Assembly: GCA_016783745.1 (NCBI GenBank)
Contig: JADHVZ010000001.1
Span: forward strand, 9,447-73,446
Direction: 5' to 3'
Length of the DNA stretch: 64,000 nucleotides
Origin: Candidatus Omnitrophota bacterium
Lineage (GTDB): Bacteria > Omnitrophota > Gorgyraeia > JAHIPI01
This document shows, one piece after another, positions 643 to 55,757 of this stretch. The notes under the pieces were generated by a model. That model was not told the origin of the DNA and did no database searches. It was given only the letters and a program-made list of their open reading frames with translations. Within the stretch, counting starts at the first letter, position 1. Each line of letters starts with the position of its first letter. Both the position numbers and the translations under genes were made by a program.

Positions 643-2475
643 TTAGTCGCCGCTGGGGTGGCCGCCGTCGCCGCTGGGGTGGTATGACGGTGAGCCGGAT
701 CCCGACTGGTTTATGGCGTTGGAGATGGCGCCCGCGGCTTGTCCTATGGCCCGCCAGGTAGCCTCGTTCGCTCTCTGCTGGGCTATCCTTCTGGCCTCTT
801 CCTGGCGGATCTGCTCGGGCGTTGGAATGCTTACAAAGGCGGCCCCGCCGTCGAATGTGGGAATAATGCCGCCCGAATAGAATTGTCCCATCATGGCATG
901 CATCTTATCCTGATAGCGCTCGAGCGCTATCTTCTTTTCTTCAGGTGTCGCCTGCGGGTTATCAAGAACTTCCTTTAATTCGTCCGGGTTGGACCTCTCC
1001 TTCTCACGATGTTCCCGTTCCAGCCCGCGAATCTCAAGCACCAGGTTGAATGCTTCGTGCTCAAGCATCCTGCGTTTATTCCTAATCTTGTTAATCTTAT
1101 CGGTTAGTGCCTTGCGCGCTGCCCTAGTGGCTTTGTCTGTTCCTTTTCCAAGAGCTTTCTTACTTTTTTCCAGGCGCTCTTCTTCAATATAAAGCTCCTC
1201 TACCTGTTTATCTAATTCTATGACTCTGTCGCCCCGTTCATCGTGCTCTCCCTTGCCTTCTTCGCCTGATACTTTTACTTCGCCTTCCGCTTTTGCTTTA
1301 GCCGCTTCCTGACGCGCCTTTTCTTCAGCCTGCCTGCGTGCCTCTTCGTCCCTTTTGCGGGCCCTTCTTTCACGGTCCTTTCGCCTTGCACGATCCTGAG
1401 CCCATTCAGTGATGGCATTGAGGCCTTGAGCGATATTGCTCAAGGCCGTTTCATCGGTCAGCGTGCGCCCCTCTTGCTGATATGCGTTGTCCCCCGTAAG
1501 CACAGGCACAGAATCGATAGCGTAGTCGATATTAACTTCGGGAAGAGGTATTCCGGGAACAGACTCGCCTTCAGGGGCATCAGAGATGCCATATTCTGTC
1601 TCAAGCTCAAGCCACTCTCCGTCAAACATCTCGTTCAGCAGACCAACGGAGCTGTTCAGTAATCCCGCCGCTGTGCTGAGCACATCGGCGGCCGCATCCA
1701 GAGATTCTTCGTTGACGATATACTCGCCGTGCTTGAAACGCCCGCTTACGCCTATGGGCACGTTACGTAAGTATATCTTTGCGGCACTACTTACCGCCTT
1801 GTCAAAGACATAACCCTTTACTTCGCTCTCTAAGTAATTGATGGTGTCATCTATCATCTCTTCGCCGGTCTCATCAAGTATATGCTCATATACCTTTTCG
1901 TTATTACTAAGGCGCCCGGCTAAGATCTGCCTCTTTCTCCGGAGCTCCTTTATACCTTCCTCTGTCTTCATCTTCTCCTTGTCTTTATCATATTTTTCCC
2001 ATGCATCTTCAATGCGCGCGAGCTTATGCCTGGCCATCCTGTCCTCATTGGTAAGCTTCATAAGGTCGCTGTCAATTTTCGCCACTGCTTCACGTTTAGG
2101 CTCAGGGCCCAATGAGTGTCTTTGCAGCTCAAGCTTTTCCTTCTCGTGCGATATCTCTTTTGTCCTCCGCTCCAATTCACCACGCTGAAAGACAGGCCCG
2201 CCGAATTCACCCTTTAATACAGAGTTGTAATAATGGTATCTGAATGCCAGCTCGTCTGTTGAGGCCCTCAGTTCGGCGGCCGCCATATCGTAGTTCACAA
2301 AACGCTCAAAGAGCGTTGCCCCATAAAAAGTTCCGCTGACGGCTGCTCCGGCATAGCCGATGGCGGCTATAAGGGTGACTACCGCATCCGCGTTTGGATT
2401 GCCGAGAAGGACGGTTGAGATAAGGATAAATGATATAATTTTCGATAATCTATTTCTCATGTTTTTAGCGCGCAT
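643..2475 (-). CDS. Membrane-anchored coiled-coil protein, K/E/R-rich, function unknown
   Basis: 610-aa ORF with an N-terminal hydrophobic segment, long charged heptad-like stretches and a Gly/Ser/Pro/His C-terminal tail. No recognisable catalytic motif. Confidence 0.5.
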   Translation of the reverse strand: MRAKNMRNRLSKIISFILISTVLLGNPNADAVVTLIAAIGYAGAAVSGTFYGATLFERFVNYDMAAAELRASTDELAFRYHYYNSVLKGEFGGPVFQRGELERRTKEISHEKEKLELQRHSLGPEPKREAVAKIDSDLMKLTNEDRMARHKLARIEDAWEKYDKDKEKMKTEEGIKELRRKRQILAGRLSNNEKVYEHILDETGEEMIDDTINYLESEVKGYVFDKAVSSAAKIYLRNVPIGVSGRFKHGEYIVNEESLDAAADVLSTAAGLLNSSVGLLNEMFDGEWLELETEYGISDAPEGESVPGIPLPEVNIDYAIDSVPVLTGDNAYQQEGRTLTDETALSNIAQGLNAITEWAQDRARRKDRERRARKRDEEARRQAEEKARQEAAKAKAEGEVKVSGEEGKGEHDERGDRVIELDKQVEELYIEEERLEKSKKALGKGTDKATRAARKALTDKINKIRNKRRMLEHEAFNLVLEIRGLEREHREKERSNPDELKEVLDNPQATPEEKKIALERYQDKMHAMMGQFYSGGIIPTFDGGAAFVSIPTPEQIRQEEARRIAQQRANEATWRAIGQAAGAISNAINQSGSGSPSYHPSGDGGHPSGD

Positions 2476-2959
2476 CTTCCGCCTCTTCTATGGGAACCGG
2501 GAGTGTCTGGACGAAGACGACCTTTTCGCCTTGCAATGCCACTTTAACCTGATCGAAGTAGTCGTACATCGTTACGCCTTCCATCAGGTCGGAATTGATC
2601 TTTCCGCTCGCGGCCGGCTTACCGAGTATCTTTTCCATATCTTTCATCGTCATGCCGTATTTGAACTCTGTCGGCCTGAAGTCCGGCCACTGGAAGTAGT
2701 CCGGGAGCCTTTTTTGCGGCACAAATCGCAAAAACCTGCCGTTTGAGAAGGAAAAGCTTCTCTCGCAGCTAAAATATGTCCAGACCTCAACACGCTTTTC
2801 TGCGTCCATCAAAAGGGCAAAGATATCGGGATAGCCGAAGGCATCTACAAGTTTCTGCTGATCTTTTGACAGGCGGTCTTTTGTAAGGACGCCGCATCCC
2901 AGCACAATAAGCGCTATTACGACGGAAATGCAGATTGTGAAAATCAAAAATTTCTTCAT
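2465..2959 (-). CDS. Putative lipoprotein
   Basis: N-terminus MKKFLIFTICISVVIALIVLGCG has a lipobox-like LGC. It overlaps the downstream gene by 11 nt, so it is probably in the same operon. Confidence 0.45.
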   Translation of the reverse strand: MKKFLIFTICISVVIALIVLGCGVLTKDRLSKDQQKLVDAFGYPDIFALLMDAEKRVEVWTYFSCERSFSFSNGRFLRFVPQKRLPDYFQWPDFRPTEFKYGMTMKDMEKILGKPAASGKINSDLMEGVTMYDYFDQVKVALQGEKVVFVQTLPVPIEEAEDAR

Positions 2960-4161
2960 AAACTATTCTCTAATGTCTCTACGTAATTCATCAGATTGTC
3001 GCAGAGATTGGCGTATGAGGCGGTTCCAAACTCGAAGCGGGCGCGCTTAAGGTCGCTTGAACAGAGCCCCAGCTGTTCTGTCCAGACAGCCTTCTGCTCG
3101 TCTGTCCACTCCTTGTCCGGTGAATAATGGGGGAGGAGGCCGGCCAGCCTGGCATACGCCAAATTGAGAAATAGAAATCCATTTCTATTGCCGGTCCGGC
3201 CCTCTTTCATTTTATTAAGGGTGTTCTCGAACTTTGTCATCATCTCGATCGCTTCTTCGTACTCCCCTGAGACCAGCGCTTCATTTATTCTGTCTATGGT
3301 GACGGCGCATTGGACATCTTTTTTTACGTTTTTCATGAAAGCGGCGGCCCAATAGTCTATCTGCGGCAGGAATCTCTTGACCGATACTTTGTAATCGTTA
3401 TCATTGAGCTTCTGATAGCCCTTCACAAAGTCTATAAGCTCGGGATTTGTAAAGTATTCACGGGCGAGTTTATAATATTCACCGGCGTATGTGAAAGGAT
3501 AACACGCCCTTCTCAGATATGCCATTGCAGTGTAGTTAGTATCGGAGGGTTTTATCGATTTCGTATTTTCTATCGCGCATATGTAGTAGTAGAAGCCCTT
3601 AGATATATATAAAAAACCGTGCGCCTGGCGGTTACCCGGATCGATCATTCTGGATGAAGCGAATATTTGAATGGCCAACTCCAGATATTGCTTTGCTTCT
3701 GTGTAGTTGGCCGTGTTATAGGAAGCGCCGGCTTTGTCAAAATGGGCGACGCCCGAGGAGAAGACCTCCTGCGACCAATCAGCCGGCTGTGACTCTACGG
3801 CCTCTCTTAAGCCTTTAGCTAAATTTTCAAGATTTTCGTAGGCTAATAAAGCCCCCTCTGAGCCTGGATCGAGCTCTATAGCCTTCTGATAATACTCGGC
3901 GGCAGAGCCATATCTCCCCGCCTTCTGATATTCGGCGCCGCGGTCATTATACTCAGCCGCGGTTTCAGGCTCATTTTTACGTCTGGCGACATATTCGGAC
4001 CCGGCATCATCACCCGCGTCATTCCATTCGGCCATGAAGCCCTCAATAGCAGATCCGATAAAATCAAGGTTTAACAAAAGGGTCCATGAGACATATAATA
4101 CGAGGATAATAGATAGGGTTAAGACGATTTTTTTCATATAGATACGCGGCTTGGGCTTCAT
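2956..4161 (-). CDS. Membrane-anchored TPR-like repeat protein
   Basis: N-terminal TM helix followed by repeated A-x-Y / Y-x-x-A motifs (AEYNDRGAEYQKAGRYGSAAEYYQKAIELDP). It is the third gene of a minus-strand operon spanning 643-4161. Confidence 0.45.
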   Translation of the reverse strand: MKPKPRIYMKKIVLTLSIILVLYVSWTLLLNLDFIGSAIEGFMAEWNDAGDDAGSEYVARRKNEPETAAEYNDRGAEYQKAGRYGSAAEYYQKAIELDPGSEGALLAYENLENLAKGLREAVESQPADWSQEVFSSGVAHFDKAGASYNTANYTEAKQYLELAIQIFASSRMIDPGNRQAHGFLYISKGFYYYICAIENTKSIKPSDTNYTAMAYLRRACYPFTYAGEYYKLAREYFTNPELIDFVKGYQKLNDNDYKVSVKRFLPQIDYWAAAFMKNVKKDVQCAVTIDRINEALVSGEYEEAIEMMTKFENTLNKMKEGRTGNRNGFLFLNLAYARLAGLLPHYSPDKEWTDEQKAVWTEQLGLCSSDLKRARFEFGTASYANLCDNLMNYVETLENSL

Positions 4162-4250
4162 TCCCTTCTAATTAAGAAGTGTACCACATATTCCGCTTGC
4201 CGTCCAATTTTTAGGTTGTTTTCTTTGTAAATTAGGGTAAACTTTAAGGT

Positions 4251-5342
4251 ATGAGGGCGCTAAAGATATTACTTAAAACTTTTGCCGCGCTTATAATCGT
4301 CAGCGCGCTTTTCGCGGCCGGCGCGGCGGTGCTGGTAAAAATGCGCTGGAAGCCCACAGTAGAGCGATTCTTGAGCGATGCCCTGGGCGTCGGCATAAAG
4401 TTTGAGGGAGCGGCCTTGAACCCGAAGGAATACGCGCTTACGATACGCGGCCTGAAGATTTTGAGCGGCGGAGAATTTGAAAGAAATACCTTTTACGGCG
4501 AAAGATGCACGCTCATGCTGGATAAGGACCTGTATGATGAAGAGGAGAGGCTGTTCGTAAAAGAGGTGGTTATTGAAGGCGGAGAGCTGAGCCTGGAGAG
4601 GAATGAAAAGGGGAGATGGAATATCGAACGCGCCGAATTGCCGGAGGCTGATTTTGGGCCCGGGGCGGCATACGCGGCGGAATCAGAAGGCGGGGCGCCG
4701 CTTTACACTTTTGTAAAAAGCATAAAAAAGGTCAGCATACGGGACTCCGGCATTCTTTTTAAGGATAAATATGTCCCGGGAGGGCCGTTCGAGATGGCCT
4801 TCTATGATTTCGATTTCAAGCTTGACTCCGAAGAGGAATTTGAATCCGTATACGGCTATATACCGATAAAAGTTGAGGCGGATTTCAACATTGAGAATAG
4901 CCTTAACAGGGACAGTAAGATTAGCGTAAAGGGAAAGATCGCGGCATACCCGGGCAGCGCAGCCATGGACATGACCGTCATTGCCTCTTATGTGGACCTG
5001 ATGCAGTTTCTGCCCTATTTTGAGAGTTATACGCCGTTCTCCTTCAATAGCGGCCTTTTCAGCTCCACGACAGAGCTTTCAATAAGGGACAATATGATAG
5101 ATTGCTCTACGACGATGTTATTTCATAAGCTGAATCTGCTCATAGACAAGGGAATGGAAAACGCGCAGTTTCTGGAGACGAGCGTGAATAACCTGGCCCC
5201 GTATCTTATGTCGCGCGGCGAGATACTTTTCGATTTTGTCGTTAAGGGGCCCGTAGATAACCCTAAAGCGAACGTAGGGCCCAAGGTGAAGTCGGCCATG
5301 ACCGCCCTTTTCATGGATGGGATCGGCAAGGCCTTACAGTAG
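4251..5342 (+). CDS. AsmA-like N-terminal domain membrane protein
   Basis: An N-terminal TM helix followed by TVERFLSDALGVGIKFEGAALNP resembles the AsmA/DUF748 N-terminal region. The size is a short 363 aa. Confidence 0.4.
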   Translation: MRALKILLKTFAALIIVSALFAAGAAVLVKMRWKPTVERFLSDALGVGIKFEGAALNPKEYALTIRGLKILSGGEFERNTFYGERCTLMLDKDLYDEEERLFVKEVVIEGGELSLERNEKGRWNIERAELPEADFGPGAAYAAESEGGAPLYTFVKSIKKVSIRDSGILFKDKYVPGGPFEMAFYDFDFKLDSEEEFESVYGYIPIKVEADFNIENSLNRDSKISVKGKIAAYPGSAAMDMTVIASYVDLMQFLPYFESYTPFSFNSGLFSSTTELSIRDNMIDCSTTMLFHKLNLLIDKGMENAQFLETSVNNLAPYLMSRGEILFDFVVKGPVDNPKANVGPKVKSAMTALFMDGIGKALQ

Positions 5343-5466
5343 TTACAAATACTCTCATAACCGGCTCAAATTGGGACGTTTAACCCGCTCCCGGCACCTT
5401 CCGCATGTGCGGCAGCCTCAGGCACATTCCGCTTGGTTTTATTCTCTATTGTGATATAATCTAAAC

Positions 5467-5577
5467 ATGAAAAAGCTTCTGCACATAATCGCGACGCCGA
5501 GAGGGGAGGAGTCCCGGACGCTCAAGGTCTCCGGGGCATTTCTGGGGCAGTTTAAGAAAAAATATCCGGATAAATAG
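5467..5577 (+). pseudogene. Truncated N-terminal remnant of an FMN-dependent NADH-azoreductase-like gene (36 codons, then stop)
   Basis: MKKLLHIIATPRGEESRTLKVSGAFLGQFKKKYPDK* matches the characteristic AzoR N-terminus (MKKLLhI.sSPRGe.S.sr.L...F). A TATAAT sits at 5453-5458. It is followed by about 470 bp of AT-rich non-coding DNA. Confidence 0.3.
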
Positions 5578-6054
5578 TCAGACGGCAACTTCAATGATTG
5601 TAATAGGTTACAAAAGAAATGCACACACCGTATTTTATTTGTAACCCCATGCGCAACAAATAGGCGCGCAACACGTCTGATTGATTGTTAAAGTTAGAAC
5701 CATTAATGTTATTATGATTTTTTTCATCTTTATTTATGTCTCCATATCGGCATGAATTAAATACAACAATTTTGCTTGCTTCTATTATAACATGATAGAA
5801 TGCTGGATAACATTGCTATTTCTCATTTAATAAAGGCTTATAGTGCAATGTCTGGTTTTATCAGCTTCTTCGGTCAGACAATAGACCTTAAGCTCCTCTT
5901 TTAATATCTACTTTAATCTTGTCAAATATTTCCCCGCGGAGTATAATTTATACACAATACGTTTTAAGCGATAAGTGGAGCCTCCCAAAGTGGACCGTCT
6001 CCATTTACTCAGTGGCAAAATGGGCAAAGATGACCATCCAAGAAAAGGAGCACA

Positions 6055-8847: not shown

Positions 8848-10677
8848 TTATTTTACCCCCAATATTTTCTTTAATTCTTCGAGTAACTTAGGATTAATTT
8901 TACACCCCAGCGCTTTTGCTTGTAGTATATCTCTTAGACTTTTATCATATTCTTTTTTGATATAATAGGCAATCCCTCGGTTGTTATAGGCTAAAGCATG
9001 GTTGGGGTCGATTTCTATTACCTTATTGTAATCTAATAACGCCTGGTTGATGTTGCCTTGTTTTCGATAAAGCAGGCCTCGATTAAGGTAGGCTAAATCA
9101 CAATTGGGGTCGATTTCTATTGTCTTGTTGTAATCTAAGAACGCCTGGTTGATGTTGCCCTTACTTCGATAGGTATTACCTCGATTATAGTAGGCTAAAG
9201 CATAGTTGGGGTCGATTTCTATTCCCTTGTTATAGTCTAAGAGTGCCTGGTCGAGGTTGCCTCGGTCTTGATAAAGCAGGCCTCGATTATAGTAGGCTAA
9301 AGCATAGTTGGGGTCGACTTCTATTGCCTTGCTGTAATCTAAGAATGCCTGGTCGAAGTTGCCTTTCTTTTTATAGGCATTCCCTCTGTTGTTGTATGGT
9401 CTGGCTTTATGGGGAGATTTACAAGTTACATCATTCCATAGAGTAAGCTCATCTTTCCAGACAAAATTTCTATAATAAGTTAATATTGAATAAGAAGTAA
9501 CTATCATAAGTAGAATTATAACCACCTGCTTTAGGGCATTCTTTCCGAAAAGATAATACATGCCACTTACTATAAAAAGGCTATAACCAACGATGGGTAA
9601 ATAAAGCCTGTGTTCAAATATTACATCATCAAGAGGCACAATGCTTGATTCCGGCAATAAAGTTATAAAAAACCAGAAAATACCAAATGACAGTAGTCTA
9701 TATCTAGGGAATATACGGATTGCGCCCATTATAATTGCGGCCAGGATAAATAAACTGCCTAATGTATTTATATCCATTAAGTTCTTAGCTATTGGGTAGT
9801 CATAGTCCAGATTCTGGTTTAACGGCGCAAAAAGAAGCCTTATGTAAGTTAATATAACGCGAAATTGAGTTAAAAAATACGCCCCCCCTTTATTGAGAGG
9901 CTTGTCTATTAACCGCTGTATGCACATAAAGTTTTCAGACCTGGTAGAAAATAATAATAAAGGAATAATTAATATTGTAATCAGGAAATATAAGGCGTAT
10001 TTCCAGTTAGCATATCTTTCTATATTAAAGAAACAAAATTCACATAATAGTACTATTAAAGGTAAGGTCGCCGCGTTTTCCTTAGTAAACATGCTGAGTA
10101 TGCAGAAAACGTAGGAAAAAGCGTAAAAAAAAGGCCATTTTGAGGTAGCTTTATTATCTATCTGTAATAGCCTTGTCTTAATATAGAAACATAGTGAAAA
10201 AAGATAAAAGAATCCTACTAAAGAACTACTCCTTTGCCATATGTAAGTGACAGATTGTGTCTGAACAGGGTGGGTTACGAATATTAAGCCTACAAATAAA
10301 GCTATAGAATCAGCGTATTTAGAAATAGCGTTCTTCTTCATTGTAGGCGTAGAAAGGATAAGTATAGTCAGCCAGAATACTAGAATAGCCGAAGCTAAAT
10401 GGATAGCTGTATTAAAGACATGATAGGAAAATACATTAACTTTGGAGAAATGATAGTTTAAAGCAAAGGTAAGAATAGTGATAAACCTGGCGGGCCAGGC
10501 ATTCCAAATATTTCGCAGATTCCAAATGTCTCTTATGGCAAAATTATTAACTATACCAGATCCGTCATCAAAATGAAATGAGTTAAAAAAAGTATTGGAG
10601 TAGACTATAAACCCGAATAAAAGCAGTATGATGATACTCAGTAATTTATAATTTCGATTAAAAAATCTTGTTAACAT
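8848..10677 (-). CDS. GT-C fold membrane glycosyltransferase (PMT/TMTC-like, DUF1736-type) with C-terminal TPR repeats
   Basis: Multi-TM N-terminal region with FHFDDGSGIVNN in the first loop (the DD/DE motif of GT39-like GT-C enzymes). The C-terminus has more than six TPR units (AYYNRG.LY...G....A..DYNK.IEIDPN). Very AT-rich. Confidence 0.6.
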   Translation of the reverse strand: MLTRFFNRNYKLLSIIILLLFGFIVYSNTFFNSFHFDDGSGIVNNFAIRDIWNLRNIWNAWPARFITILTFALNYHFSKVNVFSYHVFNTAIHLASAILVFWLTILILSTPTMKKNAISKYADSIALFVGLIFVTHPVQTQSVTYIWQRSSSLVGFFYLFSLCFYIKTRLLQIDNKATSKWPFFYAFSYVFCILSMFTKENAATLPLIVLLCEFCFFNIERYANWKYALYFLITILIIPLLLFSTRSENFMCIQRLIDKPLNKGGAYFLTQFRVILTYIRLLFAPLNQNLDYDYPIAKNLMDINTLGSLFILAAIIMGAIRIFPRYRLLSFGIFWFFITLLPESSIVPLDDVIFEHRLYLPIVGYSLFIVSGMYYLFGKNALKQVVIILLMIVTSYSILTYYRNFVWKDELTLWNDVTCKSPHKARPYNNRGNAYKKKGNFDQAFLDYSKAIEVDPNYALAYYNRGLLYQDRGNLDQALLDYNKGIEIDPNYALAYYNRGNTYRSKGNINQAFLDYNKTIEIDPNCDLAYLNRGLLYRKQGNINQALLDYNKVIEIDPNHALAYNNRGIAYYIKKEYDKSLRDILQAKALGCKINPKLLEELKKILGVK

Positions 10678-22354: not shown

Positions 22355-22431
22355 CGCCAATGGGTCCGGAAGAAATATTTCTTTAGTTTATCTTTTTTTT
22401 AATGTATAATCTAACACAAAGGAGCGGTCAT

Positions 22432-22812
22432 TTGGAACCGAGAGAATTGAAGGGCAAAATACTTTATATCGATGATGAGGTAGAATCCTGCGAGATGATA
22501 ATGAAGTTTCTTGACGCAAGGGACTTCGGGGTCATCGTAAGCTTTACAGGGGAAAGCGGCTATGATATGGTTAAGATGTGGGAGCCTGATCTTATCCTTA
22601 TCGATATAAAGCTTATAGGTATGAGCGGAATAGAGTTTATAGAAAAGATCCAGAAAGAAGGGATAAATACACCCTGCATCGTAATTACGGGATACCCGGA
22701 GAGGATAGCTGAAGTAGAGCTCAAGGAGCTGAATATATTCGGATACTACACAAAACCATACAGCGTGGCTGAACTTTACGGCAAGATAAAAGAGATCTTG
22801 GAGGTGACCTGA
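22432..22812 (+). CDS. Single-domain response regulator (CheY-like receiver). Probable TTG start at 22432 after AAGGAG; the ORF-track ATG at 22402 has no RBS.
   Basis: KILYIDDE (acidic pocket), DLILIDIKL (phospho-acceptor Asp region) and a conserved T/K pair downstream. Confidence 0.65.
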   Translation: MEPRELKGKILYIDDEVESCEMIMKFLDARDFGVIVSFTGESGYDMVKMWEPDLILIDIKLIGMSGIEFIEKIQKEGINTPCIVITGYPERIAEVELKELNIFGYYTKPYSVAELYGKIKEILEVT

Positions 22813-23168
22813 TGGCTGCCTATAGCGGACGTGAAAAGCGAAAACACAGAAGGATCTACAAGATCATCGGCACTAATATAATCCGCCATAATGCGAAAGA
22901 ATATGATCCAAAGCTTGATGAGGAAGTAGGCCTGAATATATCCGCAGGCGGGATTCTTATTGAGTGCGAAAAAAAATTAGAAAGGCAGGACAAGCTAAAG
23001 ATCAAGGTCATGCTCACTTTTGATACAGTGTATAAAATTATTGAGCTTAACACCGAGGTGGTCTGGATCAAAAAATCTTTCCGTAATACTTATTTTATAG
23101 GCTGTAAACTGACAAAACTCTCCCTGAAAGACAGGTTGATCCTCAAGAAATATACCGCTTCATTCTAA
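22812..23168 (+). CDS. PilZ-domain protein (c-di-GMP binding), translationally coupled to the receiver gene
   Basis: RxxxR motif (EKRKHRRIY) and D/NxSxGG motif (NISAGGILI). Its start overlaps the upstream stop. Confidence 0.6.
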   Translation: MAAYSGREKRKHRRIYKIIGTNIIRHNAKEYDPKLDEEVGLNISAGGILIECEKKLERQDKLKIKVMLTFDTVYKIIELNTEVVWIKKSFRNTYFIGCKLTKLSLKDRLILKKYTASF

Positions 23169-23257: not shown

Positions 23258-24418
23258 ATGGGGATGTGGGTAGGCCGCGGAAGGAAGGCCCGAAGGTGTT
23301 ACGGATTTGATGAGATATCTCTTGCCCCGGGAAGTTTGACAATAAATCCCAACGAAGTCGATACAACAGTTCAAATAGGAAATAATAAATTAAAGGTCCC
23401 TATATTAGCGGCAGCCATGGACGGTGTGGTAGATGTTAAATTTGCCATCGCTATAGGGAAGATAGGCGGCCTGGCCGTACTGAATCTTGAAGGAGTACAA
23501 ACGCGCTACGATAATCCGGGCGAAGTCCTGGATAAGATAGCAAAGGCAACACCGCAAAAAGCCACAGAACTTGTCCAGTCGATATATTTAAAGCCGATCA
23601 AAGAAAAGCTTATATCTAAAAGAATAGAGCAGATCAAGAAGGCGGGTGTGCCTGCGGCGGTAAGCGCAATACCCCAGAGGGCCGAAAGGTTCGGCAAAAT
23701 AGCTGAGGAAGCCGGCTGTGATATGTTTGTGGTGCAATCAACAGTGACAACGCCAAAGCACCTCGCCAGCGAATACAAGTCGCTTGATTTTAAGAAATTC
23801 TGCAAAAAAATGAAGATCCCGGTATTGATCGGTAATTGCGTTACATACAATACGGCGCTGGAGCTTATGGGCACCGGAGCGAGCGGATTGCTTATAGGCA
23901 TAGGCCCCGGAGCAGCCTGCACTACAAGAGGGGTCCTTGGCATTGGCGTTCCTCAGGTAACCGCTACCTGCGATTGCGCGGCCGCGAGGGATTTCTTCTA
24001 TAAGAGTCGCGGAAAATATATACCCATAATAACCGACGGTGGCATGAGCTCAGGCGGAGATATTTGTAAGGCCATTGCCTGCGGCGCTGACGCCGTGATG
24101 ATAGGCTCCGCATTCGCACGCGCCAATGAAGCGCCCGGCCGTGGTTTCCACTGGGGTATGGCGACACCTCACCCTAACCTTCCGCGCGGTACACGTATTG
24201 AAGTAGGGACGACCGGATCACTCAAGGAAATACTTTTTGGCCCTGCAAAATTAGACAACGGTTCCCAGAATCTAGTCGGTGCGTTGCAGACGTCCATGGG
24301 TAATGTCGGCGCGAAGAGCATTAAAGAAATGCAGCTTACCGAAATAATCATCGCCCCGTCTGTGCAGACAGAGGGGAAGGTGTTCCAGGTCGCCCAGCGC
24401 GTAGGAATGGGGAAATAG
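23258..24418 (+). CDS. IMP dehydrogenase/GMP reductase family protein lacking the CBS pair (GuaB3-like)
   Basis: N-terminal [14 protein letters not shown]-barrel catalytic loop [11 protein letters not shown], and [16 protein letters not shown]. There is no CBS insertion. Confidence 0.65.
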
Positions 24419-24446: not shown

Positions 24447-27400
24447 ATGAAAAGACATTCCGATTTTGTCCATCTGCATACCCACACTCAGTTTAGCCTT
24501 CTCGACGGAGCCTGTCATATATCGCGTCTCTTTCAGCTGGCCGAGAAGGAGCGAATGCCTGCCGTAGCTATCACAGACCACGGCAACATGTTCGGAGCCA
24601 TTGAGTTTTACCGGAAGGCACTCGCCCACGGAATAAAACCCATAATAGGTTCTGAAGTCTACATCTCTCCCGAAAGCCGTTTTGAAAAATCCGCACAGGG
24701 CATCCAGGAAGCATCTTTTCACCTGATACTTTTGGCGAAAGACACAGAAGGTTATAAAAACCTCATGAAGCTGATAACCGCGGGTTACTTGGAGGGATTT
24801 TATTACCGGCCCAGAATAGATAAGGATATTCTAAAGAAGCACCATAAGGGGCTGGTATGCCTTTCCGCGTGCCTCAAAGGCGAAATACCGCATCTGATAA
24901 AGAACGGACAGGTGGAGCAGGCAAAAAATACGGCAGTGTTTTTTAAGGATCTTTTCGGGAAGGATTTTTATCTTGAGATACAGGATAATCTTATTCAGGA
25001 TCAGATAGATGTGAATCGCGTACTGATCGATATGGGTAAGCAGCTGGACATCCCTCTCGTAGCTACTAACGATGTCCATTATTTGAAGAAGGAAGACGCT
25101 TATGCCCATGAGGCCTTGATGGCGCTTCAGACACAGGCTACGCTGGATGATCCCAATCGGATGAGGCTGCAGACGGACGAGTTTTATTTGAAGAACGCAG
25201 AACAGATGAAGCGCAAATTTGGGACAGAATGCCCCGAGGCTATAAAAAATACAATAGCGATAACGGAAAAATGTAATCTTGAGCTTGATTTCAAAAAAAC
25301 CCACCTACCGCATTACAGGCCTCCGGCGGGAAAGACCAGGGAGGGATATTTCAGGGAGCTGGTGGATGAGGGACTGAAAAGGATTTACCCTGAAATAACC
25401 GATGAGATAAGAGACAGGGTCGAGCATGAACTGAAGATCATAGAGAAGAGCGGATTTATCAGCTATTTTCTTATAGCCTGGGATTTTGTACACTATGCCA
25501 AAGGGAAAGGGATACCGGTAGGTCCGGGCCGTGGGAGCGCGGCGGGAAGCGTGGTGAGTTACGCTTTAGGTATAACGGACATCGATCCGCTTAAATATGA
25601 TCTGCTCTTTGAAAGATTCCTGAATCCCGAGAGGATCAGCATGCCTGATATCGACATAGATTTTTGCTATGAGAGAAGAAGTGAAGTCATAGATTACGTT
25701 GTTCAAAAATACAGTAAGGATAATGTAGCGCAGATAATAACCTTCGGAACGCTAATGGCAAAGGGAGTCATCCGCGATGTAGGAAGGGTGATGAGTATGT
25801 CCTATAGCGAGGTAGACAGGATCGCCAAGATGGTCCCTAATGATCTGAATATGACTCTACAGCAAGCGCTCAAGTCCTCTCCGGAGCTAAAAAACCTTTA
25901 CGAGACCGACCAGCGTGTTACGCAGCTTATCGACACTTCAATGGTGTTAGAGGGGTTAAGCCGTCACGCATCCACTCACGCCGCCGGCGTAGTTATATGC
26001 GAAAAGCCTCTTACCGAATATATTCCGCTTATCAAAATGGGGGACGGCCAGATAACCACCGGTTATCCCATGGCTTCGCTTGAGAAGATAGGCCTTCTTA
26101 AGATGGATTTTCTGGGCCTGAGGACTCTTACGGTTATAAGCGAGACGCTAAAAATCATAAAAAAGACAATAGGAGTAGAGTTTGAGATCGACAAGATCCC
26201 GACGGACGATGAAAAAACGTTCCGGTTACTTTCCAACGCTGAATCAGTAGGCGTATTCCAGGTGGAAAGCTCCGGAATGCGTGACCTTCTAAAAAAATTT
26301 AAGCCTGAAAAATTTGAAGACCTGATAGCTATTCTGGCCCTCTTCAGGCCGGGCCCCATGGGAAGTGGTATGCTTGACGACTTTATCACAAGAAAACAAG
26401 GTAAAGTGAAGATACAATATGACCATGAGAGCTTAGAGCCTATATTGAAGGAGACATACGGCATCATCGTATTTCAGGAGCAGGTCATGAGGATAGCTTC
26501 CACCCTGGCCGGATTCTCACTCGCCCAAGCCGATTCGTTAAGGCGCGCGATGAGTAAAAAGACTCCGGAGGTCATGGTAGAGGCCAGAAAGCATTTTATT
26601 GAAGGTTGCCTGAAAAAAGATATCAGCAGAAGGATAGCGGATAAGGTCTTCAGTTTTATCGAATATTTCGCGGGTTATGGATTCAATAAATGTGTGGCCG
26701 GGTCTACGGAAATAATAAATGCGGATACAGGTGAGTATGTAAAGGTAGAAGAATTATTCACTAAAAAAGACATTATAAATACATTTAGTTGTCACGAAAA
26801 GACTTTAAAGATCATTCCTCAAAGGATGAAAGACATTGTCTGTAATGGCATCAAAAAAATATACCGTTTAAAAACACGCACCGGAAAGGAAATCGTAGTA
26901 ACGAATAACCATCCTTTTTTGACAGTCTCAGGCTGGAAAGAATTAAAAGACCTTAAGGACGGTGACATGATCGCTACTCCGAGAAAAATACCTCTATCTC
27001 CGGAATATGGCATGGAAGAATATAAGATCATATCTTTAGCCAAATTGCTGTCGGAGGGGAACCTATGCCATACCAGCGGCCTTTATTTCTATAGTAATAG
27101 CAGAGAAGAGGTGGATGAATTCACGGCAAATATCGAGCGCTTTGAAAAGACAAGGGCAAGGGCATATCAGAGGGACGATAAATATGAGGTATATGTCGGC
27201 ACGGGACAAGATACAAAATTCTTTAAAAATCAGGTTCCCTGGAATAAAAGGCCTTCAGGCCAGACCGCTACCGTCCAAAGCCGATTTTCAAGGTGCGGCG
27301 CCAGGATCTGGATAGAGGAATTGGGATTAAGCAATAAGAAGGCCTATGAGAAATTCATCCCGCAAGAAGTTTACTCTCTTTCTACGGAAAAGCTCGCATT

Positions 27401-29303
27401 ATTTTTTGGTAAGTTATGGTCAGGGGACGGATTTATTTTCGGCAAAAGTAATTCTATTCCATACTATGCTACGTCCTCAAAAAGGATGGCTAAAGATGTG
27501 CAAAACCTGTTATTGAGACTGGATATAATATCCTCTGTCACGAAGAAGGAATTTAAATATAAGTATAAAGGAATAACGCAAAAGAGGTATGGTTATACGG
27601 TTTATTTGTTAGGACGTGAGTCTGTAGAGAGATTTTCAGAGAAGATCTGTCAGCATGTCACAGGAAAAGCTGACCAAATATCCCGTCTAAGGGATTATTA
27701 TGCTCACCTTCCCAGAGACAAAGAGTCAAAGGATATAATTCCCCAGGAGATAAAAAATATTATTCGTAAAGAAAAGGAAAGGGTAGGAAAGGGCTGGAGA
27801 GAGATCGAAAGAGAGAGCGGTGTCTGCACAAAAGAGCTTTGCGGACGGCTAAGGCCGCATAAAAAAGGATTTAAGCGGAGCACCGTAAATAGACTAGCTT
27901 CCTACTTTGATTCCGGCGAACTTTTTAAATATGCGGCCTCTGACATTTATTGGGACCCGATAGTATCAATAGAATATGTCGGCATGGAGAATACATATGA
28001 TATTGAGATGGAGCAGACGCATAATTTTATTGCTGACGGAATAATAGTCCATAATTCACATAGCGCCGCGTACGCGATGATCTCATACAGGACCGCGTAT
28101 CTTAAAGCGAATTATCCCGTGGAGTTTATGACGGCGCTTCTGACCTCTGAAAAAGATAATACAGATAAGATCGCTCAATATATAGAAGAAGCAAACAGGA
28201 TGGGCATAAAGATACTTCCGCCTGATGTAAACGAAAGTTATTCAAGATTCACAATTATAAAGGATAAATCAGAAGAAAACAAATACGGGCAGTCGATAAG
28301 GTTCGGTTTATCCGCGGTGAAAAATGTGGGACACGGCGCTATTGATTCCATCATCGAAGCTAGAGAAAGTGAAGGTAAATTCAGCTCTCTTTACCAGTTT
28401 TGCGAACATGTCAATTCAAGGCTGGTTAATAGAAAGGTCATAGAGAGCCTGATAAAGTGCGGGGCATTCGATTCTACGGGTTTATTCCGGTCGCAGCTTA
28501 TGGCGATACTTGACAGGGCAATGGAAGTGGCCGGCGGGATCCAGAAGGACAGGATAGGCGGCCAGTTATCGTTTTTTGATACTTTTGAGGCAAGCGGTGA
28601 TTTTAAGAAAAGCTTTCAGGAGATACCCGACATCAAAGAGTGGCCGGAAAATCAGCTTCTTACTTTTGAAAAGACACTGCTGGGTTTTTATATAACAAAG
28701 CACCCTCTTACAAGCTTTGAGAAGATCTTAAGATTGTACGGATCCACCAGTATCATGGGCTTGAGCAACTTTAAAGACGGCGCCATCATCCATATGGGCG
28801 GTATCTTGAATAAGGTAAAGCTTACTACTACCAAGAAAACCGGTGAACGCATGGCTATAGCTCAACTTGAAGACTTAAGCGGTATGGTGGAAGTGCTGGT
28901 GTTCCCGAAAGCGTATAATAATATCGGTAGATTCTTTAAAGCCGACACAATGATCTTTTTAAAAGCCAGAGTCAGCTTAAGAGAGGAAGAGCCTAAGCTT
29001 ATAGCTGAAGACGCGTTTCCTCTTGAAGAAGTACAGGAGAAGATGACCAAATCCATTGGAATAAGCATAATTACCAGCGGATTGGATAAAAAGACGCTGG
29101 ATTCTCTTAAGTTTATTCTATCCAACCACAAAGGGAATATTCCCGCATACATATATTTTAATACCCCCGAAAAGAAGAGGGTCATGATGGCCCTAAGCCG
29201 CGACTATAGCATTAAGCCATCAACCGAGCTTATAGATGAACTGGAGGAGATCCTTGGCGAAGGTTCAGTTTCGGTAAAGGCTTCCCACTCCAACGGCAGA
29301 TAA
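24447..29303 (+). CDS. dnaE: DNA polymerase III alpha subunit DnaE, carrying an in-frame intein
   Basis: PHP motif HLHTHTQFSLLDGA, palm/fingers motifs, and the conserved FAGYGFNK|SHSAAYA block. In this gene that block is interrupted by 455 aa between FNK and SHSAAY. Confidence 0.9.
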   Translation: MKRHSDFVHLHTHTQFSLLDGACHISRLFQLAEKERMPAVAITDHGNMFGAIEFYRKALAHGIKPIIGSEVYISPESRFEKSAQGIQEASFHLILLAKDTEGYKNLMKLITAGYLEGFYYRPRIDKDILKKHHKGLVCLSACLKGEIPHLIKNGQVEQAKNTAVFFKDLFGKDFYLEIQDNLIQDQIDVNRVLIDMGKQLDIPLVATNDVHYLKKEDAYAHEALMALQTQATLDDPNRMRLQTDEFYLKNAEQMKRKFGTECPEAIKNTIAITEKCNLELDFKKTHLPHYRPPAGKTREGYFRELVDEGLKRIYPEITDEIRDRVEHELKIIEKSGFISYFLIAWDFVHYAKGKGIPVGPGRGSAAGSVVSYALGITDIDPLKYDLLFERFLNPERISMPDIDIDFCYERRSEVIDYVVQKYSKDNVAQIITFGTLMAKGVIRDVGRVMSMSYSEVDRIAKMVPNDLNMTLQQALKSSPELKNLYETDQRVTQLIDTSMVLEGLSRHASTHAAGVVICEKPLTEYIPLIKMGDGQITTGYPMASLEKIGLLKMDFLGLRTLTVISETLKIIKKTIGVEFEIDKIPTDDEKTFRLLSNAESVGVFQVESSGMRDLLKKFKPEKFEDLIAILALFRPGPMGSGMLDDFITRKQGKVKIQYDHESLEPILKETYGIIVFQEQVMRIASTLAGFSLAQADSLRRAMSKKTPEVMVEARKHFIEGCLKKDISRRIADKVFSFIEYFAGYGFNKCVAGSTEIINADTGEYVKVEELFTKKDIINTFSCHEKTLKIIPQRMKDIVCNGIKKIYRLKTRTGKEIVVTNNHPFLTVSGWKELKDLKDGDMIATPRKIPLSPEYGMEEYKIISLAKLLSEGNLCHTSGLYFYSNSREEVDEFTANIERFEKTRARAYQRDDKYEVYVGTGQDTKFFKNQVPWNKRPSGQTATVQSRFSRCGARIWIEELGLSNKKAYEKFIPQEVYSLSTEKLALFFGKLWSGDGFIFGKSNSIPYYATSSKRMAKDVQNLLLRLDIISSVTKKEFKYKYKGITQKRYGYTVYLLGRESVERFSEKICQHVTGKADQISRLRDYYAHLPRDKESKDIIPQEIKNIIRKEKERVGKGWREIERESGVCTKELCGRLRPHKKGFKRSTVNRLASYFDSGELFKYAASDIYWDPIVSIEYVGMENTYDIEMEQTHNFIADGIIVHNSHSAAYAMISYRTAYLKANYPVEFMTALLTSEKDNTDKIAQYIEEANRMGIKILPPDVNESYSRFTIIKDKSEENKYGQSIRFGLSAVKNVGHGAIDSIIEARESEGKFSSLYQFCEHVNSRLVNRKVIESLIKCGAFDSTGLFRSQLMAILDRAMEVAGGIQKDRIGGQLSFFDTFEASGDFKKSFQEIPDIKEWPENQLLTFEKTLLGFYITKHPLTSFEKILRLYGSTSIMGLSNFKDGAIIHMGGILNKVKLTTTKKTGERMAIAQLEDLSGMVEVLVFPKAYNNIGRFFKADTMIFLKARVSLREEEPKLIAEDAFPLEEVQEKMTKSIGISIITSGLDKKTLDSLKFILSNHKGNIPAYIYFNTPEKKRVMMALSRDYSIKPSTELIDELEEILGEGSVSVKASHSNGR
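26691..28055 (+). mobile_element. Class-1 intein (455 aa) with a LAGLIDADG homing-endonuclease domain, inserted in DnaE between FNK and SHSAAY
   Basis: Block A CVAGSTEII (Cys1), block B VVTNNHPFLT (TxxH), the C-terminal IIVHN and +1 Ser. Two LAGLIDADG-like motifs (LAKLLSEGNL and LALFFGKLWSGDGFI). The insert is more AT-rich than the flanking dnaE sequence. Confidence 0.8.
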
Positions 29304-29373: not shown

Positions 29374-29916
29374 ATGATAGACAAGGACCTGGAATACAAA
29401 ATCAAGAAGATAAAGGTATTCATGGAATTATGGGTGAAGTTCCATGATATGTACAAAAACGCGCTGAGCCATGAGACCATCACGCCTGAGGAGGAGAAGA
29501 ACTTTCTTGAAACCAAGTCTCTGATCACGAGAAAATACCAGGCGCTTATAGATTATCTCGGGATCGACAGGCCCTATGATGATAAAACATTTGACGTGAT
29601 ATCGCAACTTCTTTCGCTGAAAAGTGTTGTAGCTATATCTGACCTGAGCCTTCATAAAATAGAGTACGACTGGCATAATTCTTATGTTCTTTTAAATAAA
29701 CTGCTGGGAGAACTCGATGCCCGGCAGGAGTCTTTGCGCAAGATCAGCAAGTTTGGCCTATTTATTAGAGAGCTTACCTCAAATCCGATAGCCAATTTAA
29801 TTATCGCGATAGTCTTGATAATAGCCCTATATATGTTGGTGACTTATGGAGAGCAAGCGTTAAAGCCTAAAGAAGATATAGAGAGCAAGATAGAGTTCAG
29901 ACAGCAGGGTAAATAA
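29374..29916 (+). CDS. Hypothetical protein with C-terminal TM helix
   Basis: 180 aa, no recognised motif, hydrophobic segment near the C-terminus. Confidence 0.4.
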   Translation: MIDKDLEYKIKKIKVFMELWVKFHDMYKNALSHETITPEEEKNFLETKSLITRKYQALIDYLGIDRPYDDKTFDVISQLLSLKSVVAISDLSLHKIEYDWHNSYVLLNKLLGELDARQESLRKISKFGLFIRELTSNPIANLIIAIVLIIALYMLVTYGEQALKPKEDIESKIEFRQQGK

Positions 29917-47314: not shown

Positions 47315-47393
47315 GCGCCTGTAGCTCATCAGGATAGAGCGGAAGTTTCCTAAACTTCGTCAGCAGGGGGTTCGAGTCCCTCCAGGCGCACCA
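47315..47393 (+). tRNA. tRNA-Arg (anticodon CCT), CCA-encoded, with an atypically long (7-nt) variable loop
   Basis: Hand-folded: acceptor GCGCCTG with CAGGCGC, D stem GCTC with GAGC, anticodon stem GAAGT with ACTTC, loop TTCCTAA (U33, A37), T arm GGGGG-TTCGAGT-CCCTC, discriminator A plus CCA. Confidence 0.65.
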
Positions 47394-54535: not shown

Positions 54536-55756
54536 ATGAATAAGCGTGTAGTAATAACCGGATTGGGAGTTATATCATCGATTGGAATCGGCAAAGAGGA
54601 TTTCTGGAATAATCTTATTGCCGGGAAATCCGGCATAAGCGATGTGACGACTTTCGATACCTCTAAATATGATAACCACAAAGGCGGCGAAGTAAAAGAT
54701 TTTAATCCATCAGATTTTATTTCTCGTAAGCATATAGCTGAGATGGGAAGGGCATCACAATTTGCAGTTGCAGCTTCGCAATTAGCACTTGATGATGCCA
54801 AGATGCACACCTTAGAAGCAAAAAAGGCTCGAGCCGGGGTGATAGTTGGCACAACCATGGCAGATGCTCAGGCCATAGAACAAATAGACAAGTATTGGAT
54901 TGATAAAAGTGAAGATGAAGTATGGGCAACAAATATTGTTAAATATCCAAGCAATGTTATAGCCGATAATGTAGGATACTATTTGGGGACACAGGGACCA
55001 AATTATGTGCTTCCTAATGCTTGTGCTGCAGGTAATTATTCTATAGGTTATTCTTTTGATCTTATAAGAGCTGGAAAGACTACCATTATGCTGGCTGGTG
55101 GTTCTGAGCAATTTTCAAGAATTACTTTTACTGGATTTAGCCGTCTATTTGCGATGTCTCCTGATCGGTGTCAACCCTTTGACAAGAATCGAAAGGGCAT
55201 GATTGTAGGCGAGGGAGCTGGCATATTGGTTTTAGAGGAATTAGAGCATGCAAAGAGAAGGGGTGCTACAATGCATGCCGAAGTACTGGGATACGGGTTA
55301 AGCTGCGATGCCCACCATATGACTGCGCCAAGTGTAAAAGGCATAACTTCGGTTTTGGAAAATGCTATGAAATTTTCAGATATAAGAAAAAATGATGTTG
55401 AATTTATCTGTACACATGGTACTGGGACTCCCGCCAATGATAGGGCTGAATGCCATGCCATGAAAAATGTTTTTGGAGAAAAATTCAAAGAGATTCCTGT
55501 AAATTCAATAAAGTCTATGCTTGGCCATACCATGGGAGCAGCAAGTGCGATAGAGTCAATAAGTACAATTTTGGCAATAAAAAATGGTATCATTCCACCA
55601 ACGATAAATTATGAGATATCCGATCCTGAGTGTGAGTCAGTCGACTGCGTAGCAAATGAAGCTCGTGTGAAAAAAATAAAAATAGCGCTAAATAATGCTT
55701 TAGCTTTCGGCGGCAATAACGCATGCATAGTTTTTAAAAAAATACAAAATTTATAA
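54536..55756 (+). CDS. Beta-ketoacyl-ACP synthase (active KS, FabF/KS-alpha-like)
   Basis: Catalytic Cys in PNACAAGN, His in THGTGTPANDRAE, and Lys/His in NSIKSMLGHTMGAAS. Confidence 0.8.
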   Translation: MNKRVVITGLGVISSIGIGKEDFWNNLIAGKSGISDVTTFDTSKYDNHKGGEVKDFNPSDFISRKHIAEMGRASQFAVAASQLALDDAKMHTLEAKKARAGVIVGTTMADAQAIEQIDKYWIDKSEDEVWATNIVKYPSNVIADNVGYYLGTQGPNYVLPNACAAGNYSIGYSFDLIRAGKTTIMLAGGSEQFSRITFTGFSRLFAMSPDRCQPFDKNRKGMIVGEGAGILVLEELEHAKRRGATMHAEVLGYGLSCDAHHMTAPSVKGITSVLENAMKFSDIRKNDVEFICTHGTGTPANDRAECHAMKNVFGEKFKEIPVNSIKSMLGHTMGAASAIESISTILAIKNGIIPPTINYEISDPECESVDCVANEARVKKIKIALNNALAFGGNNACIVFKKIQNL

Positions 55757-55757
55757 A

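Follow-up and report, generated by a model that had tools for sequence, protein, structure and literature searches.

A stretch of 64,000 nucleotides (nt) from contig JADHVZ010000001.1 (assembly GCA_016783745.1) of a Candidatus Omnitrophota bacterium, the whole of which we call the window, contains a dnaE gene for the alpha subunit of DNA polymerase III (Pol III) that is interrupted by an in-frame insert of 455 amino acids (aa). Judged from its sequence, this insert is confirmed as a genuine and intact full-length class-1 intein with a double-motif LAGLIDADG endonuclease. We consider it very probable that this single dnaE carries a class-1 intein that would splice and, through its LAGLIDADG endonuclease, home, that is old in its lineage and that belongs to a patchily distributed family. 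Omnitrophota are small-celled and often host-associated.

The open reading frame (ORF) of dnaE spans 24447..29303 on the plus strand and encodes 1618 aa, ending with the stop codon TAA at 29301-29303. It has no internal stop and no frameshift, which excludes the hidden frameshift that the first-pass annotation, made from the letters alone, had allowed for. The insert occupies aa 749-1203 (nt 26691-28055, plus strand), exactly the position and length first proposed, and it lies between FNK and SHSAAY as proposed, with the flanks ...EYFAGYGFNK/CVAGST...GIIVHN/SHSAAYAMISY... (a slash marks a junction throughout). By alignment, the insertion point corresponds to K758/S759 of Escherichia coli Pol III alpha. 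Without the insert, DnaE has 1163 aa and aligns colinearly, and gap-free at the junction, to dozens of Omnitrophota DnaE proteins that lack the intein, P0035 being an example of such an orthologue (EYFAGYGFNKSHSAAYAMISYR); the comparison of extein junctions that had been suggested as a check thus came out in favor of an intein. All 84 intein-free Omnitrophota alleles are contiguous at the site, with GFN[KR]SH. The N-extein matched the Pfam models PHP, DNA_pol3_alpha, and DNA_pol3_finger, as well as the NCBIfam DnaE equivalogs. The translation of this ORF equals, over its full length, the protein P0032 from a public Candidatus Omnitrophica metagenome-assembled genome (MAG), the public annotation of which reads only 'DNA polymerase III subunit alpha'; the present result corrects this plain label for the 1618-aa precursor. 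The features of the gene and its insert are as follows.

24447..26690 (+): dnaE N-extein, aa 1-748 (PHP, palm/NTPase, and fingers; ends ...FAGYGFNK), from Pfam, NCBIfam, and colinearity with intein-free orthologues
26691..28055 (+): complete intein, 455 aa (Cys1 to His454-Asn455), from intein hidden Markov models (HMMs), solved homologues, an AlphaFold2 (AF2) model, and Foldseek
26691..26990 (+): N-terminal splicing (HINT) subdomain, aa 1-100, from TIGR01445; aligns to residues 8-108 of the Synechocystis (Ssp) DnaB mini-intein
26691-26693 (+): block A, Cys1, invariant in alignments
26901-26912 (+): block B, T71-N-N-H74, with H74 invariant and T71 at least 90% conserved
26991..27650 (+): predicted homing-endonuclease domain, about aa 101-320, two alpha/beta LAGLIDADG half-domains, from model secondary structure and fold matches
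27027..27062 (+): LAGLIDADG motif 1, IISLAKLLSEGN, aa 113-124, with putative catalytic Glu122, from model helix 110-122 and E-G conservation
27396..27434 (+): LAGLIDADG motif 2, ALFFGKLWSGDGF, aa 236-248, with putative catalytic Asp246, from Pfam LAGLIDADG_3 and model helix 232-246
27651..27920 (+): helical region after the endonuclease core, aa 321-410, from model helices 327-339, 352-365, 369-376, 396-406, and 409-415
27921..28055 (+): C-terminal splicing subdomain, aa 411-455, from TIGR01443; aligns to residues 115-159 of the Ssp DnaB mini-intein
Within 27921..28055 (+): block F, NTYDIEMEQTHNFI, with D437 and H444, and block G, IIVHN
28056-28058 (+): Ser+1, the C-extein nucleophile
28056..29303 (+): dnaE C-extein and stop (Ser+1, SHSAAYAM...; HhH, OB fold, and C-terminal domain), from Pfam HHH_6, tRNA_anti-codon, and DNA_pol_IIIA_C
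26679..26690 and 28056-28067 (+): candidate homing site, left half GGATTCAATAAA and right half TCACATAGCGCC, proposed from a synonymous haplotype and from clustered differences in a pair of alleles with and without the intein

The intein HMMs, a check that had also been suggested at the outset, passed their curated cut-offs for both Pfam and TIGRFAM. Pfam Intein_splicing matched the insert at 7e-29 (101 bits, with the cut-off at 35.8), and LAGLIDADG_3 matched aa 234-319 at 2e-13. The N-terminal splicing model TIGR01445 (8e-12, aa 1-78) and the C-terminal model TIGR01443 (6e-9) were both above cut-off. A weak Pfam HEPN_Apea match that overlaps the endonuclease was set aside, being below cut-off with an E value of 0.001. 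Among solved structures, the best sequence matches were the Ssp and Nostoc DnaB mini-inteins (E 1.8e-26), which align to residues 2-103 and 410-454 of the window intein; the solved RecA mini-inteins are also homologous to it. Eleven sequences, DnaB-type relatives among them, were aligned; C1, H74, D437, H444, N445, F446, H454, and N455 do not vary in this 11-sequence alignment, and the conservation of T71 is 90% or higher. The Cys1, TxxH, terminal HN, and +1 Ser named in the first-pass annotation were thus all present, as C1, T71-N-N-H74, H454-N455, and Ser+1. Together with blocks F and G, a predicted HINT fold, and the in-frame insertion, these are the marks of a class-1 intein. Considering that dnaE is essential and that the catalytic residues are intact, we infer that the window intein splices autocatalytically.

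The insert might instead be a lineage-specific DnaE insertion, or a bacterial intein-like (BIL)/Hint domain that is not excised, and hence no intein at all. For this reading we found no evidence. Each of blocks A, B, F, and G was found with canonical residues, so their absence, another possibility allowed for at the start, is excluded, and the +1 Ser follows them. The TIGRFAM models for both ends of the splicing domain exceed their cut-offs, the insert splits an invariant motif of the catalytic domain that is contiguous in all intein-free orthologues, and many phyla have orthologous inteins at exactly this site. The non-intein reading is effectively refuted, and we leave it next to no probability.

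The second part of the intein is the putative endonuclease. Two LAGLIDADG motifs had been proposed, and both were found, each with an acidic residue followed by Gly: IISLAKLLSE122-G-N and ALFFGKLWSGD246-G-F. Across 45 same-site DnaE inteins, E122 and G123, as well as G245-D246-G247, are at least 95% conserved, while D246 and G247 are invariant both there and in the 11-sequence alignment. The DnaB-type relatives have Asp at the position matching Glu122. In the helical region of aa 321-410, no Pfam model scored above threshold; D348, P351, and R396 are conserved in the 11-sequence alignment, and the region presumably serves accessory DNA binding.

The structural model was built by AF2 from the 11-sequence alignment and reached a predicted local distance difference test (pLDDT) score of 85.3 and a predicted template modeling (pTM) score of 0.87; the single-sequence AlphaFold prediction (pLDDT 33.6) was not usable. 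The model predicts a HINT fold with two LAGLIDADG half-domains and their central helices. The first half-domain consists of helix 110-122, strand 131-135, helix 138-148, and strands 155-161 and 164-170, and the second of helix 232-246, strand 258-261, helix 264-277, and strands 281-292 and 295-306. The modeled splicing domain superposes on the DnaB and RecA mini-inteins with a root-mean-square deviation of 1.0-1.6 A over about 100 residues, and the middle domain matches the free-standing LAGLIDADG enzymes I-Tsp061I and I-DmoI in Foldseek. The best Foldseek matches of the whole model were full-length endonuclease inteins, with TliVMA (7qss) at the top (E 8.5e-21, template modeling (TM) scores 0.65/0.68), and PI-PfuI (1dq3), PI-TkoII (2cw7), and PI-SceI (1vde and 1lws) among the others. 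These archaeal and yeast inteins have the same architecture of a HINT domain with a pseudo-symmetric two-fold LAGLIDADG endonuclease, at E values from 8.5e-21 to 2e-10 and TM scores up to 0.65-0.68. However, their sequence identity to the window intein is only 10-17%, and their hosts, sites, and accessory DNA-binding regions differ.

To place the intein among its relatives, sequence searches of several kinds were combined. When the intein alone was the query, a word-indexed protein search returned only DnaB-type relatives of about 30% identity and fragments. The close Omnitrophota homologues, which it missed, were found by a search with the exteins and by an exhaustive comparison with 1.84 billion cluster representatives, which gave 8829 matches at E <= 0.001. 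The top-ranked representatives (P0152-P0175 and others) are almost all DnaE proteins with an intein of 420-460 aa at ...YGFNK/C...HN/SH.... About 60 of the best 150 representatives have the intein at the DnaE GFNK/SH site, most of the others being inteins of DnaB, at two sites in that protein.

In addition, GTDB was scanned, with one genome per species, for a degenerate DNA pattern encoding F-[AG]-x-Y-G-F-N-K-C. At least 120 loci were found, all of them in dnaE, and the following counts and hosts refer to the 120 matches listed. At least 74 are same-site inteins verified at both junctions, comprising 48 of 400 aa or more, 10 of intermediate size, and 16 mini-inteins of 240 aa or less. The hosts include Planctomycetota, Chloroflexota, Deinococcota (among them a Thermaceae MAG), Rokubacteria, Patescibacteria, Rhodothermales, and Bacteroidota, as well as Alpha-, Beta-, and Gammaproteobacteria, Desulfobulbales, Actinomycetota, Armatimonadota, Gemmatimonadota, and Firmicutes. 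A further 27 matches were rejected as containing no intein, since they are DnaE proteins with a Ser-to-Cys substitution (FNKCHSAPYAL). Every other match listed marks the start of an intein.

Several observations on this site stand apart from the window intein itself. Intein-free DnaE with GFNK-C-H[SA]APYAL occurs in many Alphaproteobacteria, Spirochaetes, and Symbiobacteriaceae (L011, L015, L019, L027, L028, and about 22 more GTDB loci), and its Cys replaces the Ser that acts as the +1 nucleophile where an intein is present. One locus in an archaeal MAG labeled Nitrosotalea sp. (L021, DATIWG010000012.1) is a bacterial dnaE with a 421-aa same-site intein that closely resembles those of Rokubacteria (CLTADTRV...GIAVHN/SHAACYGV), and it is probably a binning contaminant. 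P0022 has an HNH-like, Cys/His-rich insert in place of the LAGLIDADG domain at the same DnaE site, and mini-inteins of 145-230 aa are found there too (L031, L040, L049, L062, and others). Evidently, the site has been used by several endonuclease types or the endonuclease has repeatedly been lost there. Related full-length inteins also lie at the homologous position of a DnaE paralogue, in ...YGFPE/C...HN/SHA[AS]SFAL (P0193, P0202, P0242, P0268, and P0295). The paralogue is probably of the error-prone DnaE2/ImuC type; if so, one intein family occupies the equivalent site in both paralogues.

The DnaE inteins at GFNK/SH share with the window intein the host protein, the identical insertion point, and the ends Cys1 ... 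HN/Ser+1. The nearest relatives of the window intein by sequence all occupy this site and are 40-50% identical to it from end to end. The same site may also hold one of the two Thermus thermophilus DnaE inteins. The DnaB inteins (Ssp/Npu; 1mi8, 6frg, and 4o1r) are the best sequence matches of solved structure, with about 38% identity over the splicing domain, and they share the block F/G signature ...HNF[IV]A[ND]xIIVHN/S. Full-length DnaB inteins have about 30% identity over 100% of the query, including the same endonuclease and helical regions. They differ in host gene and site (DLRESG/C...HN/SIEQD), and the DnaB inteins of solved structure are engineered mini-inteins without the endonuclease.

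The cyanobacterial split DnaE inteins all precede Cys-Phe-Asn (PMC3585056). As Cys-Phe-Asn aligns with the GFN of GYGFNK, the split site lies 4 residues upstream of the window site, which bears out the earlier statement that the two are a few residues apart. The split inteins (Ssp/Npu) are in the same host protein and the same conserved motif; however, they are divided between two genes (dnaE-n and dnaE-c), lack an endonuclease, and use Cys+1, whereas the window intein is in one ORF, has an endonuclease, and uses Ser+1. The kinship implied by the first-pass annotation did not hold, because the split inteins match the window intein at E values of only 0.07-0.7, over the last 30 or so residues, compared to 1e-26 for the DnaB inteins. 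Judged by these alignments, the split DnaE intein is a different insertion allele and a separate family.

The wide occurrence seen here accords with the survey by Novikova et al. (2016; PMC4760082), which reports 116 PolIII-alpha inteins and a hot spot of insertion in the fingers domain, with points a-d and g falling within 75 residues; the phyla given there do not include Omnitrophota. A full-text literature search for 'Omnitrophica' plus 'intein' returned nothing relevant. The present case therefore extends DnaE inteins to a phylum absent from the listing in that survey. For biology at large this carries little weight, as Pol III alpha inteins are well documented and the site is among the most commonly occupied.

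The insert had been described as more AT-rich than its host gene and hence as recently acquired. The first part is correct as far as it goes: GC content is 40.0% in the intein and 45.1% in the exteins, and GC content at third codon positions (GC3) is 41.8% and 51.8%, respectively. However, 17% of the window genes have a GC3 equal to or below that of the intein, so the intein is no compositional outlier. In addition, each of the six intein-bearing Omnitrophota alleles (window, L001, L002, L005, L006, and L007) has a GC3 that is lower in the intein than in the exteins around it, for example 0.451 versus 0.641 in L001 and 0.534 versus 0.721 in L002. As the offset is common to all six alleles and lies inside the range of the window genes, the lower GC is no mark of recent arrival, and we rejected it as a sign of recent transfer. 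The GC3 offset persists despite long residence and saturated synonymous divergence. Separately, three window genes, located at 54536-56876 (+) and 8851-10677 (-), have GC3 values of 0.30, 0.30, and 0.37 compared to a window mean of 0.48; they deviate more than the intein and may have been laterally acquired.

The age of the intein was assessed by comparing neighbor-joining (NJ) trees of inteins and exteins. The window intein forms one clade with those of P0033 and P0034 (99.5% bootstrap), and the exteins of these three likewise form one clade. Identity among the three is 67-78% for the inteins and 85-90% for the exteins, and the number of synonymous substitutions per site (dS) is undefined or above 1.7 in comparisons with the window sequence. 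These congruent clades, diverged inteins, and saturated dS place the intein already in the common ancestor with P0033 and P0034. On the evidence of these trees, the intein is old and vertically inherited in the window lineage; recent acquisition, as first proposed, is not supported for this copy, given its presence before that split and a GC content within the range of the window genes.

Whether such an old element still carries a working endonuclease can be judged from selection. The ratio of non-synonymous (dN) to synonymous substitutions was finite only for the pair L001-L002 and could be estimated for no pair that includes the window sequence. For L001-L002, dN/dS was 0.047 in the homing-endonuclease domain, 0.133 in the splicing domain, and 0.043 in the exteins. 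The value of 0.047 is not what a decaying endonuclease would show. Where dS was saturated, dN of the endonuclease domain was still only 0.13-0.37. Going by these substitution rates, the endonuclease domain is under strong purifying selection.

These results bear on a second alternative, namely that the intein splices while its endonuclease is inactive on any natural target, the element being a fixed, vertically transmitted passenger late in the homing cycle. The age of the window intein, shared with P0033 and P0034 with congruent topology and saturated dS, fits such a passenger, and so does the lack of a close intein-free sister of the window allele. The 16 mini-inteins of 240 aa or less among the 74 verified same-site inteins in the matches listed likewise illustrate that endonuclease loss does occur at this site. 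However, both catalytic acidic residues and their flanking Gly are intact and conserved, and the dN/dS of the endonuclease domain, about 0.05 across the clade, is no worse than that of the splicing domain, whereas decay predicts relaxed constraint, deletions, and stops. Related Omnitrophota also hold intein-free alleles with a matching target sequence. For the window copy, we regard an inactive passenger as unlikely.

The distribution within Omnitrophota is informative about mobility. The intein is present in 6 of the best 120 DnaE matches and absent from the other 114. The six intein-bearing alleles fall in four separate places among the 37 tips of the NJ extein tree, while their inteins are monophyletic with 100% bootstrap. 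P0092 and P0115 belong to the same extein clade but pair in only 8% of intein bootstraps, and the ratio of intein dN to extein dN drops from 2.6 for window-L001 to about 1.0 for window-L006. The weak pairing and the dropping ratio suggest that the intein has spread laterally between Omnitrophota lineages. The best 80 metagenome matches were all contiguous and intein-free, which therefore gives no frequency estimate for intein carriage.

The strongest signal of mobility came from a near-identical pair of alleles in relatives, which allowed the insertion point to be examined at the DNA level. One allele is intein-free (P0041 = L209, GCA_018896195.1, gene 1001-4474), and the other carries the intein (P0045 = L005, GCA_043800065.1, gene 1001-5842). 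Their exteins are 98.0% identical in amino acids and 96.6% in nucleotides, with the same synteny. Eight synonymous changes fall in the 20 nt centered on the insertion point, which is the densest cluster of the 3471-nt gene (binomial P about 1e-7); the maximum in other 20-nt windows is five. The junction reads GGC TTC AAC AAG/AGT CAC TCA in L209 and GGA TTC AAT AAA/TCC CAT TCG in L005. Within 200 nt on either side of the junction there are 28 differences, 7% versus 2.9% elsewhere (P 2e-5), and the raised divergence extends about 150-200 nt in each direction. The junction sequence is GGCTTCAACAAG/AGTCACTCA in L209, GGATTCAATAAA/TCGCACAGC in the intein-free L003, and GGATTCAATAAA/TCACATAGC in the spliced window gene.

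A synonymous haplotype at the junction, AAT-AAR/TCN-CAT, is shared by all six intein-bearing alleles and by 9 of the 84 intein-free Omnitrophota alleles. Within Omnitrophota, only this joint three-site haplotype stands out, and not the codon choice at any single site. A difference at His+2 (CAT in 6/6 alleles with the intein and in 0/3 without it) was rejected, since 56 of 80 further intein-free alleles use CAT. A requirement for TCN at Ser+1 in intein-bearing alleles was not general either, with 47 TCN and 27 AGY codons across phyla. The tract at the junction and the haplotype would be predicted by co-conversion during homing, by recombinational loss, or by a target-site preference, and as both are DNA-level signals, protein splicing cannot explain them. 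The intein family is patchy in Omnitrophota and has recently moved, or been lost by recombination, in at least one other lineage.

Several points weigh against the full reading of an intein that both splices and homes. Splicing and cleavage are each deduced from residues and selection, and in all comparisons with the window sequence dN/dS values are bounds and not estimates, because dS is saturated. The trees are NJ only, and that of the inteins has poor resolution in its deep branches. The tract belongs to the relatives L005 and L209 and not to the window allele, and it would be explained equally well if the intein had been lost through recombination with a divergent allele lacking it. No more than four independent lineages underlie the haplotype association, part of which could be due to common descent. 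Even the intein-free relative closest to the window allele has only 82.5% identity to it, and there was no direct sign of current mobility for the window copy. The suggestion in the first-pass annotation that the intein is possibly homing-competent is reasonable and has indirect support: intact E122 and D246, purifying selection on the endonuclease domain, patchiness, and the tract in relatives speak for it, whereas the window copy itself gives no direct sign.

The preferred reading of a splicing and homing intein takes splicing to follow the standard class-1 pathway, in which the 1618-aa precursor would be translated first. Cys1 would then undergo an N-S acyl shift, aided by T71 and H74 of block B, and Ser+1 would attack the resulting thioester in a transesterification. 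Cyclization of Asn455, aided by H454 together with D437 and H444 of block F, would free the intein, and an O-N shift would yield the active 1163-aa polymerase, with the invariant FAGYGFNKSHSAAY block made whole again in its fingers domain. Splicing is expected to be efficient, since dnaE is in conserved chromosomal synteny and the interrupted motif is invariant. For homing, the free intein or the precursor would cut an intein-free dnaE site-specifically at the GGATTCAATAAA/TCACAT junction, and repair from the intein-bearing allele would copy the intein together with flanking synonymous sites.

A third alternative is a domesticated intein that serves as a conditional-splicing switch (for instance, a redox or metal switch acting through Cys1 and other cysteines), gates the polymerase, and is retained for that purpose and not for homing. 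Purifying selection has long preserved the entire element in an essential gene of the replisome, and the intein contains eight cysteines (C1, C34, C51, C126, C202, C320, C379, and C384). Conditional splicing of mycobacterial DnaB inteins provides a published precedent (PMC6195587, PMC7360933), and a functional clustering of inteins in replisome proteins is argued for by Novikova et al. (PMC4760082). However, no sequence feature points specifically to regulation, and besides C1 no cysteine is invariant or at least 90% conserved in the 11-sequence alignment. As 114 of the best 120 DnaE matches are intein-free, most close relatives manage without the element, and the DNA-level signals at the junction are a prediction of selfish homing. 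Taken together, a switch retained in place of homing seems highly unlikely. The most far-reaching version, in which intein and endonuclease have been co-opted as a redox, metal, or temperature switch for the sole replicative polymerase, or, in a milder form, in which homing is active in natural Omnitrophota populations, we consider improbable, granting it a small chance.

The Omnitrophota set is an unusually clean natural record of intein gain or loss, with six intein-bearing and many intein-free orthologues in conserved synteny. If homing is active, the near-identical pair GCA_043800065.1 and GCA_018896195.1 would make it possible to measure both the homing cycle and co-conversion in nature. 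A DnaB-like intein with Cys1, Ser+1, and native FNK/SHS exteins could also be a candidate for protein-engineering screens.

The synteny in question, IMPDH-like gene, dnaE, 180-aa ORF, HU, hisS, and aspS, is conserved in relatives with and without the intein. Around dnaE, the order is response regulator, PilZ-domain protein, IMPDH/FMN-dehydrogenase-like protein of 386 aa, dnaE, 180-aa ORF, hisS, and aspS, and this order is kept in related Omnitrophota contigs whether the intein is present or absent. The window genes beside dnaE are located at 22402-23168 (+), 23258-24418 (+), and 29374-29916 (+), and the 180-aa ORF downstream of dnaE had no Pfam match. The sole RNA gene detected in the window is a tRNA-Arg(CCT) at 47315-47393 (+), the end of which is placed at 47393 by ARAGORN and at 47390 by Rfam.

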